Origin: a virus
Lineage: Duplodnaviria > Heunggongvirae > Uroviricota > Caudoviricetes
IMG/VR virus record: IMGVR_UViG_2547132274_000009
DNA: 11,639 nucleotides
Direction: 5' to 3' (one strand)
The notes below the pieces were generated by a model, which did not search any database, had not been told where the DNA came from, and worked only from the letters and a program-made list of their open reading frames with translations. Within the stretch, counting starts at the first letter, position 1. Every line of letters begins with the position of its first letter. The position numbers and the translations under genes are program-made. Below, piece after piece: positions 2,278 through 11,639 of this stretch.

Positions 2278-3441
2278 TCACTCATCATCTTCTGTTTCAT
2301 ACTCCACATCAGAAAGCCTGACCTCAAGCTCTAAGGACGTCGTGAAGCCGCTATTATTCAGAAAATGTGTCACCTTAGTGATTGTCCAGTCCTGCTCGTC
2401 TATGACGCGCTTAAAGCCTGACACTTTAACCGGCGTTTCCGTGTAAATATCTGCCCGACCAGTAGCCAGACTGATGGAGAACTCCGCAACGCCCCGTTGC
2501 AGCTTATCCCACTTCGCCTGAGCGGCGCGCATGGCCTGCGCTTTCGTGGCATATACCGTGGTCAGGGCAAAAACGTTGTCAGCCTCACCTGCCATGTATT
2601 CACCTTCGCGCGCTTCCGGTACTTTTGGCGCTTTCTTCTGCGTGACTGGTTTCGCTTTCGGGTGCTCCAGTGCGCGCAGGTGTTTCTCTTTCTTTTTGCG
2701 TTTCAGTTTTACCTTCTGCTTTTGTGGCTTCGGGTCTTTGGTGTGTAACCACTTTGCCGTTACGCCGGTATAGGCTCCACGGTCAGCAATCGCAAAATGA
2801 TGACGGTCACCGTCGCTGCGGGTGATGGTAATCTGCGGGATTTTTTTACCGCTGGCCGTCATCCCCTGCCCCGCTTTGAGAAACAACAGTTTTCCCATTT
2901 TTACCGACACCTCACCGCCGTTGCGTTCAGCAAGGCGGGTCAGGAATTTCGCATCAGACTCCTGCGACTGGTCGATGTGCGGGATTTTAATTCCGGCCAG
3001 TGACGGAGCAACACTGGCTTCCAGCCTGTTACGGGAGGCTATCGCCTCAACAATCGCACCGAGCGTGGTGTCATGCCAGGAGCCTTCCCGGCGGGAATTG
3101 AGCGTCCCGCGAAAATCTGCACTCCGGGCGCGGATGGTGACCACATCCGGCGCGCCCCGGTGTTCTACCTCATCAACGGTGAATTTCCCTTTGCATACCA
3201 GGGCAAAACCTTTCCAGCCGATATACACCGTCAGGACAGCGCCACGAACCGGTAGCCCTACCTGCCCGTCGGCGTCGTTCAGTTCAATATCAAGCTGGTC
3301 AGCCTCAAAGCCCCGGTTATCCGTCAGGGTCATGCTCATCAGACGGTCGCTGATATTGCCGGTAATATCCCTGCTGTCGAGCATCAGCATGTAATCCGGC
3401 GTCAGCGTACTGCCTGCATCAAATGTCAGCGCATCCAGCAT
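2278..3441 (-). CDS. D: Tail protein D (gpD-like, late-gene tail protein)
   Basis: 387-aa ORF (MLDALTFDAGSTLTPDYMLMLDSRDITGNISDRL...) at the P2 D position. Its ATG overlaps the U stop (TAATG), indicating translational coupling. Confidence 0.9.
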   Translation of the reverse strand: MLDALTFDAGSTLTPDYMLMLDSRDITGNISDRLMSMTLTDNRGFEADQLDIELNDADGQVGLPVRGAVLTVYIGWKGFALVCKGKFTVDEVEHRGAPDVVTIRARSADFRGTLNSRREGSWHDTTLGAIVEAIASRNRLEASVAPSLAGIKIPHIDQSQESDAKFLTRLAERNGGEVSVKMGKLLFLKAGQGMTASGKKIPQITITRSDGDRHHFAIADRGAYTGVTAKWLHTKDPKPQKQKVKLKRKKKEKHLRALEHPKAKPVTQKKAPKVPEAREGEYMAGEADNVFALTTVYATKAQAMRAAQAKWDKLQRGVAEFSISLATGRADIYTETPVKVSGFKRVIDEQDWTITKVTHFLNNSGFTTSLELEVRLSDVEYETEDDE

Positions 3442-7389: not shown

Positions 7390-8580
7390 TTAATTGCTGT
7401 TAACCGAGGTGACCAGATTTGCCAGGTATTTATCGGTGATACGCTGGCGCAGGGTCAGGTTTTCGAGAGGAGGCACCGGGGTATAGTCGTAGTCGATATA
7501 CAGTTTTCCGGCCTTGAGGGTTTCCGCATCGTTGGATTCTTCGCTGAACCAGCAGGTCGCATCCACGATATAGCCGTTTGTTTTCAGCTCACGGAATTTG
7601 GCATTGATGCCGTCAACGATGTCGCGAATCAGCGTTGCGGTGATGGGCTTGTCCACCGCCCACATGTGCGCCTCAGCCATCGTGTCGGCCAGCACCTGCG
7701 CGGTGCGGGTGTAGTTTTCAAAGAGGAACAGCGGGTCATCGGAGCAGGTACGGTTACCCCAGAAGCGGAAACCGTCGCGGCGAATCAGCGTAGTGACGCC
7801 TGACTCGTTAAGCAAGTCAGCATCGGTGCCGGACTCCTGCAAATCCCAGAAGACGGATGCGCTGATGCCGGTAACACCGTTCACCCCGACATTGGACAGC
7901 GTTTTATGCCAGCCCTGCTCCTGGTCGATTTTAGCGCGCAGACCCAGCGCACGGGCGGTGGCATACGCGGTGGCGGTGGTACTGGTGACCGTATCCCATG
8001 CGAGGAAATCCGGCCAGATGACCATCAGCTCACGCTGGCTGAAATTCTGGCGGTAGGCTTTCACCTCGGAAATGGTCTTACAGCCCCATGCGCTGATATA
8101 TCCGAAAGCGCGCAGCTTCTGACAGACTGATGCCAGTGCAACAGCCACCTCTTTGGTGTCCAGTCCCGGCACGCCGAGAATACGCGGTTTAACACCGGTT
8201 ACCGACTCCGCCGCCAGCAGGGCTTTCAGTCCGGTGTACTGACCGTTTTCGTCGGTGGTGCCGATGATATTGGAAACGGTCTGCGCAAGTTTCGTTTCTT
8301 CGTCGTCGCCGGTGCCGTCTTCCACACGTACAACAACGGTGACTGGTTTTGACTGGTCAGCGATGGCCTGCAACGACGCCGCCAGCGTGCCTTTTTTACC
8401 GGCCTTTGCAATTGCGCTCTGCACATTGGTAATCAGCACAGGTTTATTGAGGGGAAAGGTTTCCGCATCCGCATCGCTGGCCGTGCAGACCATGCCGACA
8501 ATGGCAGTGGATACAGTGGAAATGACGCGGGTGCCGTCGTTAATCTCCAGCACCTGCACGCCATGATGATAGTCACTCAT
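7390..8580 (-). CDS. FI: Contractile tail sheath protein (gpFI-like)
   Basis: 396-aa ORF (MSDYHHGVQVLEINDGTRVISTVST...). GGAG lies 8 nt upstream of the ATG. Length and position match P2 FI. Confidence 0.9.
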   Translation of the reverse strand: MSDYHHGVQVLEINDGTRVISTVSTAIVGMVCTASDADAETFPLNKPVLITNVQSAIAKAGKKGTLAASLQAIADQSKPVTVVVRVEDGTGDDEETKLAQTVSNIIGTTDENGQYTGLKALLAAESVTGVKPRILGVPGLDTKEVAVALASVCQKLRAFGYISAWGCKTISEVKAYRQNFSQRELMVIWPDFLAWDTVTSTTATAYATARALGLRAKIDQEQGWHKTLSNVGVNGVTGISASVFWDLQESGTDADLLNESGVTTLIRRDGFRFWGNRTCSDDPLFLFENYTRTAQVLADTMAEAHMWAVDKPITATLIRDIVDGINAKFRELKTNGYIVDATCWFSEESNDAETLKAGKLYIDYDYTPVPPLENLTLRQRITDKYLANLVTSVNSN

Positions 8581-8896
8581 CCGTTTAACTCCGTGGTTAA
8601 TGGGTGCAACTATTTTCTGTTGTGCAGAGCATGAGACGCTATTTGCCCTGGATGGTCAGTGGATGAAACAACAGATACAGAAAAGGCGGGCAATTCGCCC
8701 GCATTTCCTAATTTGTACTAACCCAGCTTCCAACTGACAATTTACGTAGCCAAAAAGCTATCAAGTCTGGCAGACTGATTTGTACGAGGTGTGGATAACC
8801 ATAATTATGTGCATGCTAACATCACGGTGCATGAGTCAATCGGGTCTATGCCAAAGAATTACGCCTTGATTGACCATAGATTGCTTGCCCTTGAAT

Positions 8897-8925
8897 TTGA
8901 CCATTCCAATAAAATGAATTATGAT
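8897..8925 (+). promoter_or_regulatory. Putative sigma70 promoter for the HTH cargo gene
   Basis: -35 TTGACC (8897-8902), 17-bp spacer, -10 TATGAT (8920-8925). This is followed by SD GGAGG (8937-8941) and ATG at 8948. Confidence 0.3.
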
Positions 8926-8947
8926 AATCGTCAAATGGAGGTGCACA

Positions 8948-9592
8948 ATGATCAAACACACCGCAGCAGAAAGGGAAACCAACACTTCAGCTAAGCTGAA
9001 TGAACACCAGTTGAACCTTCTGAAAAGAATTAACAACCTCGCTATTTCCCTGATGCCTGAATTTGAAGACAAAAACCAGGCAATTAATGCTATCACGCTG
9101 GATGATAGTTCACTGATGCAATTGCTCTACACCGTTCAACTCGAACAGAAGACTCGTGTCAATGACTACGAACTACGTAAAGTGCGCCGTCGTCGCGAAA
9201 ATCTGGAACGATTTTATCGTGGGCTTCAGGAGTTAGGCGGTACGCTAAAGGTAAATGACGTGGTCGATATTCTTGGAATCACCCGCCAGGCGATCAACAT
9301 TCGCGTTAAGAAGAACAAGCTTTTAGCATTCAAGCAGAACGGTGATTTTATTTTCCCGAAATTTCAGTTCACAGATAACGGGCTGATTCCCGGCTTTGAA
9401 GACGTAATGGCGGCATTTGACGAGAATACCCATCCAATGCTGCGGTTGGGTGTGCTGAAATCACCAATAGAGGTTAATAGCGAAGGCCTGAAAAAGACGC
9501 CGATTCAAATCATGCAGGACGGCGCTAAAAATAGTGAACTTAGTCTGGCTATCCGTGCCGCTAAACAGTTCGGAAATCATGTATCCAGTTAA
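8948..9592 (+). CDS. Cargo protein with excisionase/MerR-type helix-turn-helix; C-terminal region weakly resembles Xre/MbcA/ParS-type toxin-binding antitoxin domains (hypothesis)
   Basis: 214-aa ORF. Start chosen at the ATG preceded by GGAGG with 6-nt spacing; the ORF-track start at 8921 has no RBS. HTH-like segment LKVNDVVDILGITRQAINIRVKKNKLLAF at ~9242..9352. AT-rich codon usage unlike the flanking phage genes. Confidence 0.6.
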   Translation: MIKHTAAERETNTSAKLNEHQLNLLKRINNLAISLMPEFEDKNQAINAITLDDSSLMQLLYTVQLEQKTRVNDYELRKVRRRRENLERFYRGLQELGGTLKVNDVVDILGITRQAINIRVKKNKLLAFKQNGDFIFPKFQFTDNGLIPGFEDVMAAFDENTHPMLRLGVLKSPIEVNSEGLKKTPIQIMQDGAKNSELSLAIRAAKQFGNHVSS

Positions 9593-9600
9593 TTGTTTTA

Positions 9601-9628
9601 AAAAGAGGGGCTAGCCAGCCCCTCTTTG
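9601..9628. terminator. Bidirectional Rho-independent terminator shared by the convergent cargo genes
   Basis: aaaa-gaggggct-agcc-agcccctc-ttt: 8-9 bp GC-rich stem (around palindromic gctagc), flanked by an A-tract and a T-tract. It lies between the stop of the + gene (9590-9592) and the stop of the - gene (9631-9633). Confidence 0.6.
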
Positions 9629-9630
9629 GT

Positions 9631-10341
9631 TTACATTGGTTCTGGCGTAATTTCGAATCCAAGCAGTTCTTCGAACATCTCTTCACCTGACATCGTTCCT
9701 TTGTGCCACCCTTTAGGGAAGATACCTTCGTCATTTTCGATGTAACTGGCATAAGGCACCATCCCCTGAGGGGTATCGGTAAAGGCTGGTGTACTATCCG
9801 GTCGTTCCCAAAAGGCATAACAGCGTTTATAGCGTTTATGCCTTGAGGTATAGGCTATCCCGTCATAGTCACGCCCGAAATGTGTATAAAGATGTTCCAT
9901 TAGCCATTGAGTAAAAGTGTAATCCTCGTTCTCTAAGCTATCCAAAGGAATATGTAACAACTCACAGAGCGCTACAACATCGATCACTTTCACTGGCCTC
10001 ATGACATCCACAGAGCACATATAGTGTTGTGAAAGTACCGATTCAGGATAAGAAATCGTCCCTTCGAGATGGAGCAAACGCCCATAAGCTTCTGCCGCCG
10101 CCGTTAACGCAGAGTCAGAGGCATACCATACCGCCACACATCCCCCTGGGGGGTTGTATCGCCCACATTCATTTTCCTCAATTGGCGCTCTGAAGTTGAT
10201 TGCGCTTTCATACAACGCCATTTGATGACGCTTCAAAAGACCAGAGCCTGGTTGAATGTCAATCGCCGGAATACGTCCAGATTTATTTTTTGCAGCAATT
10301 CCTTGTGCAACAATATTTTTTTCAAATGTCCATTTGGTCAT
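9631..10341 (-). CDS. RES-domain-like protein; candidate NAD+-targeting toxin or abortive-infection effector (hypothesis)
   Basis: 236-aa ORF. Start chosen at the ATG 8 nt after AAGGAG (plus 10350-10355); the ORF-track start at 10389 is 16 codons upstream with no RBS. Motif ECGRYNPPGGCVAVWYASDSALTAAAE (Arg61, Ser75/77, Glu84) resembles the GGRWNPP...Y.ADSA....E core of RES toxins as I recall them (MbcT/ParT type). No search was run. Confidence 0.55.
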   Translation of the reverse strand: MTKWTFEKNIVAQGIAAKNKSGRIPAIDIQPGSGLLKRHQMALYESAINFRAPIEENECGRYNPPGGCVAVWYASDSALTAAAEAYGRLLHLEGTISYPESVLSQHYMCSVDVMRPVKVIDVVALCELLHIPLDSLENEDYTFTQWLMEHLYTHFGRDYDGIAYTSRHKRYKRCYAFWERPDSTPAFTDTPQGMVPYASYIENDEGIFPKGWHKGTMSGEEMFEELLGFEITPEPM

Positions 10342-10405
10342 TTTTACTACTCCTTCTATAAACAGATTAAGCCATAGGCTCCTCTCCATATTGATTGAAA
10401 ATAAT

Positions 10406-10429
10406 CCCTACCGTGCTTGCCCGGCAGGG
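10406..10429 (-). terminator. Terminator-like hairpin with T-tract, ~65 nt upstream of the RES-like gene start
   Basis: Minus-strand transcript reads CCCTGCCG-ggcaagca-CGGTAGGG (8-bp stem with one G-U pair) followed by ATTATTTTC. It could end the upstream tail-fibre operon or act as a leader attenuator. Confidence 0.35.
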
Positions 10430-10756
10430 GGTATGAGAACATGTGTATCTCAATCTCGATTATACCAAGCAAATTTTCTATTTTTCGGAAATTTAGAGAG
10501 TTTTTTTAATGCTTCGCATGCCTTCTCGATGTATTGATGGGGCTGAAAAGAAGAAATAACGCAGGAAGTTTTACGGAAAGGAGAACTATAAAGATTTTTA
10601 TCAAGTGAATTAGAAATAAGAACTTCGCAGGATACTGCATTTTTAGTGAAGATGGGTTGAGTTTCTCAGCAAGAGTCCCGCGAGAGCCATATTGACAGCA
10701 TGCATGACTCGGAGATTATTCCCCATGCAGGATGGTACACCAATGCAAGAGTTGGT

Positions 10757-10930
10757 TTACGCAAATGATTGGATGATCGCGATTACCGACCGTACATTGC
10801 GCAAATAACGTTCTGCGTCGATGCTATTAAGATGCCCCGACCACACCGTACGACGGACGCCGTAGTGATCCGAGCTTAAGAATAGATAATCTTTTCTCTC
10901 CTGATTCACCGTTCGCAGTGCGTTTTCCAT
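10757..10930 (-). CDS. Hypothetical small ORF (57 aa from ATG; the ORF-track version starts at a GTG at 10945)
   Basis: ORF only: MENALRTVNQERKDYLFLSSDHYGVRRTVWSGHLNSIDAERYLRNVRSVIAIIQSFA. No convincing RBS and no recognisable motif. It may be a gene remnant or non-coding. Confidence 0.15.
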   Translation of the reverse strand: MENALRTVNQERKDYLFLSSDHYGVRRTVWSGHLNSIDAERYLRNVRSVIAIIQSFA

Positions 10931-11035
10931 AGCTGTCGCAAGCACAATACTTCCGCTACAGGCACAGAGCGGACTGTCAGATTAGTTTTTACTCTGTGCC
11001 ATAGATGAGTAATCTCACACCAGAGCTAATACGAT

Positions 11036-11614
11036 TTATTGCGGCATTTCTGGCCATTCTATATCCGGAGCATTTTCCGGCTGAACGCGATTCAGTAGCA
11101 CACGGTATTTTTTCCAGTGTGTCAGGCTTAACTTTTCTTCCTCGGTAGCCATATCTAAATCGACAGCATCCTGCAGCGTGGCAATAATTTCACCTGCATA
11201 TGCAATCAGCTCTTTCTTCTGAGAGTCAGCCGCTCTGACAAGCGCATCACGCTCTGCATTCTCATCATTCACCCACGCATTTCCGTCCCATTTCTGATAA
11301 TCCCCATCCGGGGAAATGGCTGTCACGTCTGGAGGTAATGCGCCAAGTTCAGAAATATAAATGGCTGCTCCCGTTTTCGTTTCGTAGACAGTCTTTCCGC
11401 GATGATCTTCCATCAACTCCCATTTCATTTCATCTGCATTGAAAACGGCTGCATAACCAGCCGGTATATCAGGCGGCGCAATATCTGTACTGTTTGCAGG
11501 CAGACCTGTATACGGCGGAATATACGCATCACTTTCCCCAATAAATTCATTGGTTCCATCAAGTAAATTGAAAACGCGGATAGTTTGTGCTTCTGCACTC
11601 ATTCTGAAAGCCAT
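11036..11614 (-). CDS. Tail fiber assembly protein (gpG/Tfa-like chaperone)
   Basis: 192-aa [62 protein letters not shown]...[26 protein letters not shown]. The N- and C-terminal signatures are typical of enterobacterial Tfa proteins. It occupies the P2 G position, upstream of the Z/fun locus. Confidence 0.85.
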
Positions 11615-11639
11615 TATGCAAGCCTCACAATATAGTTAA

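Follow-up and report, generated by a model that had tools for sequence, protein, structure and literature searches.

A conserved leader with a probable attenuator hairpin upstream of a mobile RES-domain toxin gene

The RES-domain toxin gene of a P2-like prophage is preceded by a terminator-like hairpin, which raises the question of whose transcript this hairpin would end. The hairpin lies within positions 10342..10756 of a stretch of viral DNA of 11,639 nucleotides (IMG/VR record IMGVR_UViG_2547132274_000009), referred to here as the window. A preliminary description of these positions had seen in them a gene-free, AT-rich leader of about 400 bp and had offered three origins for the hairpin: (a) the terminator of the late tail-fibre operon, with the toxin expressed by read-through, (b) a leader attenuator, or (c) the 3' end of a small regulatory RNA or RNA antitoxin. 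RES toxins act by depleting NAD+ or by ADP-ribosylating essential targets, and because of this the silencing of RES toxins matters for abortive infection and for the stabilization of mobile elements.

The RES cassette and its setting

The window is a portion of a P2-like prophage in which the tail genes are on the minus strand. The G/FI cargo position of P2, between the tail sheath gene (7390..8580, minus strand) and the tail-fibre assembly gene (gene G; 11036..11614, minus strand), holds two convergent genes. One of them (9631..10341, minus strand) encodes the RES-domain toxin of 236 aa, whose sole Pfam match is the RES domain (PF08808; E value of 2.4e-12; 47.6 bits against a cut-off of 23.2). 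The RefSeq label for this gene is "RES family NAD+ phosphorylase," with the same start, and the homologues are all 236 to 239 aa in length. The other gene (8948..9592, plus strand) encodes a winged helix-turn-helix protein of 214 aa, the presumed antitoxin, whose family numbers 127 clusters. This protein partner was present in all loci that reached that far, and in every one of them the two genes converged. The 38-nt gap separating the genes contains a hairpin of 11 pairs (9602..9627) that the terminator scan called on the plus strand only, with the tail GGTTTACATT. Since its stem is a perfect inverted repeat, this hairpin could also act on the minus strand.

The 2.4-kb cargo was found at 99.6 to 99.7% identity across 10 complete E. 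coli genomes, at the P2 G/FI hotspot, and E. coli isolates with the cassette include SA186, G749, AR_0089, and KE26. P2 and other P2-like phages matched the flanks only and not the cargo. In E. coli A28 (L002; related loci are designated by L numbers), both genes adjoin an ArdC gene and are not in a P2 prophage. Protein-guided searches recovered more than 30 additional loci, from Pluralibacter, Pantoea, Rahnella, Proteus, Klebsiella, Pseudescherichia, Enterobacter, Erwinia, Kalamiella, Salmonella, and metagenomes. The neighbors of these homologous cassettes included a TraI_2 relaxase and ArdC (conjugative elements), TraC, AbiV, UmuC, a thiolase, a SIS-domain protein, and housekeeping genes, and the leader described below was present on six plasmids. 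The two-gene cassette of RES toxin and convergent winged-helix partner is mobile, being carried by phages, conjugative elements, plasmids, and chromosomal islands in at least 10 enterobacterial genera. It lies here in the P2 defence hotspot, yet it is unrecognized by PADLOC, which returned no match for either cassette protein. Full-text literature searches found no description of the cassette or of its leader, and a term search of papers on the P2 hotspot found no mention of RES or of any terminator.

Promoter, stem-loops, and mini-ORF of the leader

It had been noted in the preliminary description that the last 65 nt before the RES start contain no obvious sigma70 promoter. Both a scan and reading of the sequence agreed with this, while an extended -10 element that had been missed was found farther upstream (TGGTATAAT; 10467..10459, minus strand, with TATAAT at 10464..10459), about 120 nt 5' of the RES ATG. 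The promoter proposed from this element has no recognizable -35, and its transcription start is predicted at approximately 10451-10454. By script, a -10 hexamer was located 24 to 36 nt 5' of the hairpin in 24 of 26 distinct leaders; the script missed the hairpin in L041, where the -10 is present, and did not find the hexamer in L037. The hexamer is TATAAT in most loci and CATAAT, TATACT, or TGTAAT in L024, L010, L041, and L045, and it is kept even in subfamilies whose surrounding sequence has wholly diverged.

Centered at about -35 of this promoter is the palindrome TTTCCGAAA (10491..10483), which has 2 matches in the window against 0.26 expected. TTTCnGAAA was found 27 nt (25 nt in L003) 5' of the -10 hexamer in close relatives and in L036, and different palindromes occupy the equivalent site in L040 (TTTTGGaacgCCAAAA), L041, and L007. 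The palindrome is thus a candidate operator in a region whose AT-richness makes chance palindromes common. The partner promoter has four operator-like half-sites resembling TTTGACCATT, at 8869, 8896, 8926, and 8947. None of these half-sites was found at the RES promoter. Because they are absent there, the toxin promoter is probably outside partner repression and autoregulation, and it would need another brake.

The leader downstream of this promoter can form three stem-loops, HP1 to HP3, on the minus strand. HP1 (GAGAU-ACACAUG-UUCUC; 10451..10435) was obtained by folding and would lie at the very start of the predicted transcript. HP2 (CCCUGCCG-GGCAAGCA-CGGUAGGG, in DNA CCCTGCCG-GGCAAGCA-CGGTAGGG; 10429..10406) is the hairpin that raised the question, and the terminator scan and the fold placed it exactly where the preliminary description had put a stem-loop followed by a U tract on the RES strand. 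It has the G+C-rich stem and short loop of an intrinsic terminator, with 8 pairs (6 of them G-C), an 8-nt loop, and, in the consensus scan, the tail ATTATTTTCA. Alone it folds at -16.4 kcal/mol (z of -2.9; equalled by 1 of 200 dinucleotide shuffles), and HP1 and HP2 folded jointly give -20.7 kcal/mol (z of -3.8). Among distinct leaders the energies of HP2 range from -7 to -17 kcal/mol. HP2 lies 29 nt 3' of the -10 and 64 nt 5' of the RES ATG.

Directly 3' of HP2 is the U tract AUUAUUUUC (10405..10397, minus strand), which is interrupted, with 6 U in 9 positions. A run of 5 to 8 U immediately after the stem is kept in most lineages, reaching 8 straight U in L003, L004, L019, and L021, and the tract is poor in L005 (ACTGTATTT), L029 (ATTTAATTA), and L045 (TAAACATTA). 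Since the tract is interrupted here and poor in those three loci, termination may be weak in some lineages. The stem of HP2 is partly degraded in E. coli A28 (L002). In 6 of 10 subfamilies the loop sequence of HP2, GCAAGCAC, persists although the stems differ, a conservation that is not accounted for by a plain terminator, and no conserved complement that could serve as a kissing partner was found within the cassette.

HP3 (UGGA-GAG-GAGCC-UAU-GGCUU-AA-UCUG; 10388..10363, minus strand; RNAfold) is nearly invariant. Its outer stem shows no variation, and in its inner stem a single compensatory change was seen, from AGCC/GGCU to UGCC/GGCA (L040 and L042). The sequence is conserved beyond the need of the structure alone. 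Within this segment lies a two-codon mini-ORF, ATG GCT TAA (10375..10367, minus strand), whose translation is putative and which follows the Shine-Dalgarno-like sequence GGAGAGGAG (10387..10379, minus strand). Six of 10 subfamilies retain ATG-GCN-stop, the second codon being GCT, GCC, or GCA and the stop TAA or TGA; L008, L032, and L036 have a longer mini-ORF, and L010 and L037 lack it. The Shine-Dalgarno sequence lies 3 to 7 nt before this ATG, and the element as a whole 25 nt 5' of the main start codon. UAUGGC is invariant while the 5' arm changes, which hints that the start codon of the mini-ORF itself matters, conservation of the stem-loop being another possible cause.

The Shine-Dalgarno sequence of RES, GAAGGAG (10356..10350, minus strand), is 8 nt 5' of the ATG at 10341. 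In the minimum-energy fold of the read-through leader, the U tract pairs with this region around HP3, a weak feature with a z of -1.6 (3' part alone) that would suit a toxin gene in need of a brake. The U tract is also complementary to RES codons 6 to 9 at 10 of 11 positions.

Conservation, covariation, and competing explanations

In about 25 related loci the parts of the leader occur in one order: the extended -10, HP1, HP2 with its U tract, HP3 with the mini-ORF, and the RES Shine-Dalgarno sequence and ATG. A covariance model with HP1, HP2, and HP3 marked was built from eight close leaders. Of the 35 sources searched with it, 26 gave exactly one copy at the locus, always directly 5' of the RES gene. 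The same leader was not found before other genes; when viral contigs were searched by pattern, 12 additional sequences matched, but the covariance model accepted none of them as a real leader. Rfam 15 gave no match in 10342..10756 (cmscan over 8500..11639, E values up to 5). A long-range helix that would pair GAUUGA, at the 5' end, with UCAAUC, 3' of the U tract, was noticed by eye in the close group and was rejected as it is lost in distant subfamilies.

Covariance and structure prediction had been named in the preliminary description as a check, and they recovered HP2 and revealed compensatory changes in both HP1 and HP2. In the model-fitted alignment, 93.7% of cells pair, compared with 84.3% in shuffles and at most 45% with slid partners. 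Eleven of 22 pairs are changed on both sides, a number reached by 0 of 500 shuffles; HP1 contributes 4 of its 5 pairs and HP2 6 of its 8 (together 10 of 13), counts that are biased towards the model, whereas neither the MAFFT result nor the raw sequences depend on it. RNAalifold also recovered HP2 on the unfitted MAFFT alignment, where 4 of its 5 predicted pairs carried compensatory changes. Compensatory variants in the individual sequences were GAGAU/AUCUC (L006), AGACC/GGUCU (L007), and GAAAC/GUUUC (L010) for HP1 and CCCAGCCG/CGGCUGGG (L018), CCUUGA/UCAGGG (L010), and GUCUCUGGAG/CUUCAGAGAU (L045) for HP2. In the model-fitted alignment, one pair of HP1 is most often U-G, a state that also occurs within HP2. 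Such frequent G-U pairs favor an RNA of the RES-sense strand over a DNA palindrome or an antisense RNA.

Among the three origins first offered for the hairpin, the leader attenuator is the best supported, by the conserved -10 at 29 nt before it, the layout shared by about 25 loci, and the compensatory changes. We consider HP2 to be probably such an attenuator, placed between two other stem-loops in a conserved 5' leader of ~110 nt that most likely belongs to the RES transcription unit and not to the phage backbone. In about 25 loci HP2 lies between a promoter predicted from the sequence and the RES ORF, within one predicted transcript. The upstream gene is divergent in L036, L037, L040, L042, and L045, so that nothing co-directional is there to terminate. 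The order of the parts, their conservation, and the covariation of HP1 and HP2 are observed, and the mechanism joins them to a predicted promoter and predicted termination. Transcription would start at the extended -10 promoter, and after HP1, RNA polymerase would reach HP2 and the U tract some 25 to 55 nt into the transcript. Most transcripts would stop at HP2 as an RNA of ~55 nt. The minority reading through would carry HP3, the Shine-Dalgarno sequence and two-codon ORF, and the toxin ribosome-binding site, a possible second gate at the level of translation. Overall, far less toxin would be made than partner protein, which is transcribed separately and is autoregulated.

Minimum-energy folds of 18 leaders contained no antiterminator or conserved competing helix, and HP2 was kept in 13 of the 18. 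No sensing element in the form of a leader peptide, aptamer, or protein site was found; HP1 alone, ~25 nt, precedes HP2. With no antiterminator or sensor and only this ~25 nt available, regulated attenuation is unsupported, and the data suggest no more than a constitutive attenuator, which is the simplest reading.

Promoter, 5' hairpin, and terminator are also the anatomy of a bacterial small RNA, and HP1 and HP2 together fold well. The promoter at 10467 might accordingly make only the ~55-nt HP1-HP2 RNA, acting in trans as a regulator, an antitoxin, or a protein sponge, with RES transcribed from a separate weak promoter 3' of HP2. We regard this independent small-RNA gene, option (c) above, as unlikely. 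The scan found no promoter-like site and no acceptable -35/-10 pair in the 64 nt that separate HP2 from the ATG; TAATCT (10365..10370) does match a minimal TAnnnT -10 in several subfamilies but is lost in L008, L036, L041, and L045. The conservation of the HP2 loop across subfamilies whose stems covary would suit an RNA acting in trans, but the loop has no conserved complement in the cassette, and the protein partner is always present. A short RNA antisense to the 5' region of the partner mRNA was considered and rejected, duplex energies in 16 loci being no better than those of shuffles. HP2 can also be read as mainly a binding site (for a protein or a kissing RNA) or a stability element. HP1 to HP3 would then make up a structured 5' UTR through which the half-life or the translation of the mRNA is controlled. 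The degenerate U tract of several lineages, the conserved loop sequence, the near-invariance of HP3 beyond pairing needs, and the complementarity of the U tract to the Shine-Dalgarno region and to RES codons 6 to 9 are consistent with such a role. We nevertheless think it rather improbable, given that 5 to 8 U directly follow the stem in most lineages, that no binding partner was identified, and that Rfam gave no match.

Option (a) would make HP2 a terminator or insulator against upstream transcription, from the P2 late tail-fibre operon here and from other neighbors elsewhere, with the toxin produced by read-through. A late-operon origin was rejected, as the hairpin accompanies RES in non-phage contexts and with divergent upstream genes, and the insulator as a whole seems quite unlikely. 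HP2 lies 3' of a conserved -10 aimed at RES; the same hairpin is found in chromosomal, plasmid, and conjugative-element contexts that have no late operon, and P2-like prophages with other cargo lack it. On the other side, HP2 is the first canonical hairpin with a U tract on the minus strand 3' of gene G, and it would be useful for a toxin gene to be shielded when the prophage that carries it transcribes its late genes. The conserved hairpin just after gene G (10961..11000; -19.6 kcal/mol; z of -5.1), in a phage-backbone segment common to ~2,000 E. coli genomes, has no U tract, and HP2 may for this reason incidentally stop late-operon read-through in this prophage. Finally, it is highly improbable that the stem-loops are DNA palindromes serving as operators for a repressor rather than RNA structures. 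HP1 does occupy +2 to +18 of the proposed promoter, a classical operator position, is near-palindromic as DNA in many loci (GAGATGCACGTGGTCTC), and is accompanied by the further palindrome at -35. As DNA, however, the frequent G-U pairs would be mismatched, with A-C as their counterpart on the opposite strand, and the partner half-site TTTGACCATT is absent here.

Returning to the attenuator, the leader might be a third functional component of the cassette and not a passive brake, although we give this extension little weight. The ~55-nt RNA with its conserved GCAAGCAC loop could act as a regulatory RNA or an antitoxin, which would give a single-copy counterpart of type III systems with an NAD+-targeting toxin, or read-through coupled to ribosome loading on the two-codon ORF could serve as a trigger. 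If read-through were the trigger, toxin synthesis would be set free when a phage alters transcription or translation.

Known systems and the remaining upstream sequence

The layout resembles that of type III toxin-antitoxin systems (ToxIN, CptIN, and TenpIN), in which a promoter, a short structured non-coding RNA, a Rho-independent terminator, and the toxin gene follow one another. In ToxIN the terminator sets the ratio of the short RNA to the toxin mRNA. Here, HP2 and the U tract lie as a predicted terminator between HP1 and the toxin gene, and, like type III systems, which are also linked to phage defence, the cassette is carried on mobile elements. Two defining features of type III, the repeat array and the endoribonuclease toxin, are nevertheless absent. 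No tandem array of antitoxin-RNA repeats lies upstream of RES. The preliminary description had likewise reported no tandem repeats, and Tandem Repeats Finder returned 0 rows; one 10-nt direct repeat in two copies was seen, of a kind that is often due to chance. In further contrast to type III, the toxin is a RES-domain protein and not a ToxN/AbiQ-type endoribonuclease, a conserved protein partner is always present, and neutralization of the toxin by the short RNA is hypothetical.

A RES-domain toxin is shared with the RES-Xre type II systems (MbcTA, ParST, NatRT, and Res-Xre of P. putida). In those systems the antitoxin gene comes first in a single operon, whereas the genes here are convergent, the partner probably belongs to another family, and the toxin gene has a dedicated leader. 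The cassette thereby departs from the usual one-operon, antitoxin-first rule, its toxin and partner genes being convergent with separate predicted promoters. If the leader sets the ratio of toxin to antitoxin, it would be a protein-toxin counterpart of the type III terminator logic and a compact, portable module for limiting expression.

As in known attenuators (trp, pyrBI, T-box, and riboswitch expression platforms), a terminator-like hairpin lies between the promoter and the first codon and is conserved with covariation. Unlike in those attenuators, no exclusive antiterminator, upstream leader peptide, or aptamer was found, and the ~25 nt of HP1 is too little for a known sensor. The mini-ORF has the composition of two-codon minigenes such as the lambda bar minigenes and start-stop elements, namely, a Shine-Dalgarno sequence, an ATG, one sense codon, and a stop. 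It differs from these elements in that it overlaps a conserved stem-loop, which could be the sole cause of its conservation, its translation being putative, and in that 4 of 10 subfamilies lack it or have a longer version. The leader is a new, probably cis-regulatory RNA motif, absent from Rfam and now provided with a seed alignment and a covariance model, on an atypical convergent RES module.

The leader proper is only ~110 nt long and not ~400 bp as first described; upstream of it come the promoter and the -35 palindrome, to 10491, and then a lineage-specific AT-rich spacer of ~265 bp (10492..10756) with no sign of constraint. The impression of an AT-rich region was right for 10450..10650 (GC of 0.32 to 0.36) but not for 10650..10756 (0.46 to 0.50). 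In the closest relatives the entire ~600 bp 5' of RES aligns, with large internal deletions in different relatives. Spacer identity to close relatives is 0.51 to 0.85, not above that of RES third codon positions (0.77 to 0.87), and no similarity between subfamilies was found outside the ~40 nt next to the promoter. The alignment of close relatives at first suggested that 10473..10990 encodes a large, conserved non-coding RNA, but no evidence for one was obtained, as identity is at the third-codon level and vanishes between subfamilies and as the segment has internal deletions.

The region was confirmed to be gene-free in that no conserved gene lies in 10342..10756, its small ORFs having no Pfam match and being broken in relatives. 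The accompanying claim that it holds no ORF of 60 aa or more stands for the RES strand and fails for the opposite strand, where the mechanical ORF list has an antisense ORF of 93 aa (10256..10537, plus strand; no Pfam match), the ends of which differ among loci. The same list includes a hydrophobic ORF of 44 aa (10506..10640, minus strand; no Pfam match). The starts and frames of the small ORFs are broken in relatives by a change of ATG to ATA, by a 5-nt insertion (L006), and by a 1-nt deletion (L018/L020). A coding role for the region, including a 57-aa ORF (10757..10930) as well as the 44-aa and 93-aa ORFs, was rejected since starts, frames, and stops are unconserved and there are no family matches. 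At the equivalent place in L023 there is an ORF of 113 aa that resembles Arg-rich nonsense. An N-terminal extension of RES from an ATG at 10389 (252-aa ORF) was also rejected, its frame being out or stopped in L005, L007, and L029. Within the spacer, phased A tracts adjoin the promoter, and these could affect promoter strength or silencing.

HP2 loop and U tract of the RES leader

The terminator-like hairpin of the RES toxin gene leader (HP2, minus strand, 10429..10406) carries a loop, GCAAGCAC (10414-10421), which was kept in 6 of the 10 subfamilies of related leaders, while the stems in those subfamilies were altered by compensatory substitutions. Retention of the loop beside changed stems is not typical of a plain terminator. 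No conserved complement of GCAAGCAC was found within the cassette formed by the RES gene and its convergent partner.

The U tract that follows HP2 (AUUAUUUUCAA, 10395-10405) complements codons 6 to 9 of RES (UUGAAAAAAAU, 10315-10325) at 10 of 11 positions. In the read-through mRNA, this pairing could create one large loop enclosing the leader stem-loop HP3 together with the Shine-Dalgarno sequence and start codon. Both segments are of low complexity, and chance complementarity is therefore a real possibility.

DNA upstream of the RES promoter

Upstream of the predicted RES promoter lie approximately 500 bp of noncoding DNA (10473-10990) that are common to the Pluralibacter, Pantoea, Rahnella and Proteus loci; some of these loci show large deletions within it. 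Since the identity of this region across relatives equals that of synonymous sites, it provides no evidence of function. Two ORFs within it, of 57 and 44 amino acids, were rejected as genes, their reading frames not being kept in relatives.

The stop codon of the tail-fibre assembly gene is immediately followed by a very stable hairpin (GGCACAGAG...CTCTGTGCC, minus strand, 10961-11000, overlapping 10952-10973; -19.6 kcal/mol, z of -5.1), which lacks a U tract. The hairpin falls within a 90-nt segment common to the P2-like prophages of approximately 2,000 E. coli genomes, and a related sequence, with a second inverted repeat, TCCGCT-N10-AGCGGA, was also found at the cassette's far end in four non-P2 loci (L003, L004, L019 and L021). 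The hairpin sequence could represent a cassette boundary or a recombination junction. Inside the tail-fibre assembly gene itself, the minus strand at 11073-11271 gave a match to the Rfam family IS009 (E value of 8E-11) which, at 54 bits versus a gathering score of 117, was below threshold; our guess is that it reflects coding-sequence homology rather than an RNA gene.

Partner gene promoter and the convergent gap

The promoter of the partner gene, the presumed antitoxin, was assigned to TTGACC-17-TATGAT (8897..8925). Around this promoter and the start codon, four TTTGACCATT-like half-sites were observed (8869-8956), of which two are direct and two are inverted; the inverted pair was perfect in L004, L008, L010 and L032. 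These half-sites probably constitute an autoregulatory operator of the partner gene; zero copies were present at the RES promoter.

In the 38-nt gap separating the convergent genes, the terminator scan reported an 11-bp hairpin (9602-9627) on the plus strand only. As its stem is a perfect inverted repeat, it may act on the minus strand too. If termination did not occur here, the toxin and partner transcripts would be antisense to each other.

The cassette in other loci

In Erwinia sp. AnSW2-5 (L011, ~2958-3180), the RES gene was apparently disrupted, being recovered as two overlapping tblastn segments, and the RES reading-frame region contains a copy of HP2. A pseudogene or a rearranged copy is the probable explanation.

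The RES gene and its partner were found near an ArdC antirestriction gene in Salmonella (L036), a metagenome contig (L037, 2001-3392) and E. coli A28 (L002), and in L036 and L037 they sit between the ArdC gene and a TraI_2 relaxase gene that belongs to an integrative conjugative element. The ArdC-side position is a second recurrent home of the cassette, besides the G/FI cargo position (hotspot) of P2-like prophages.
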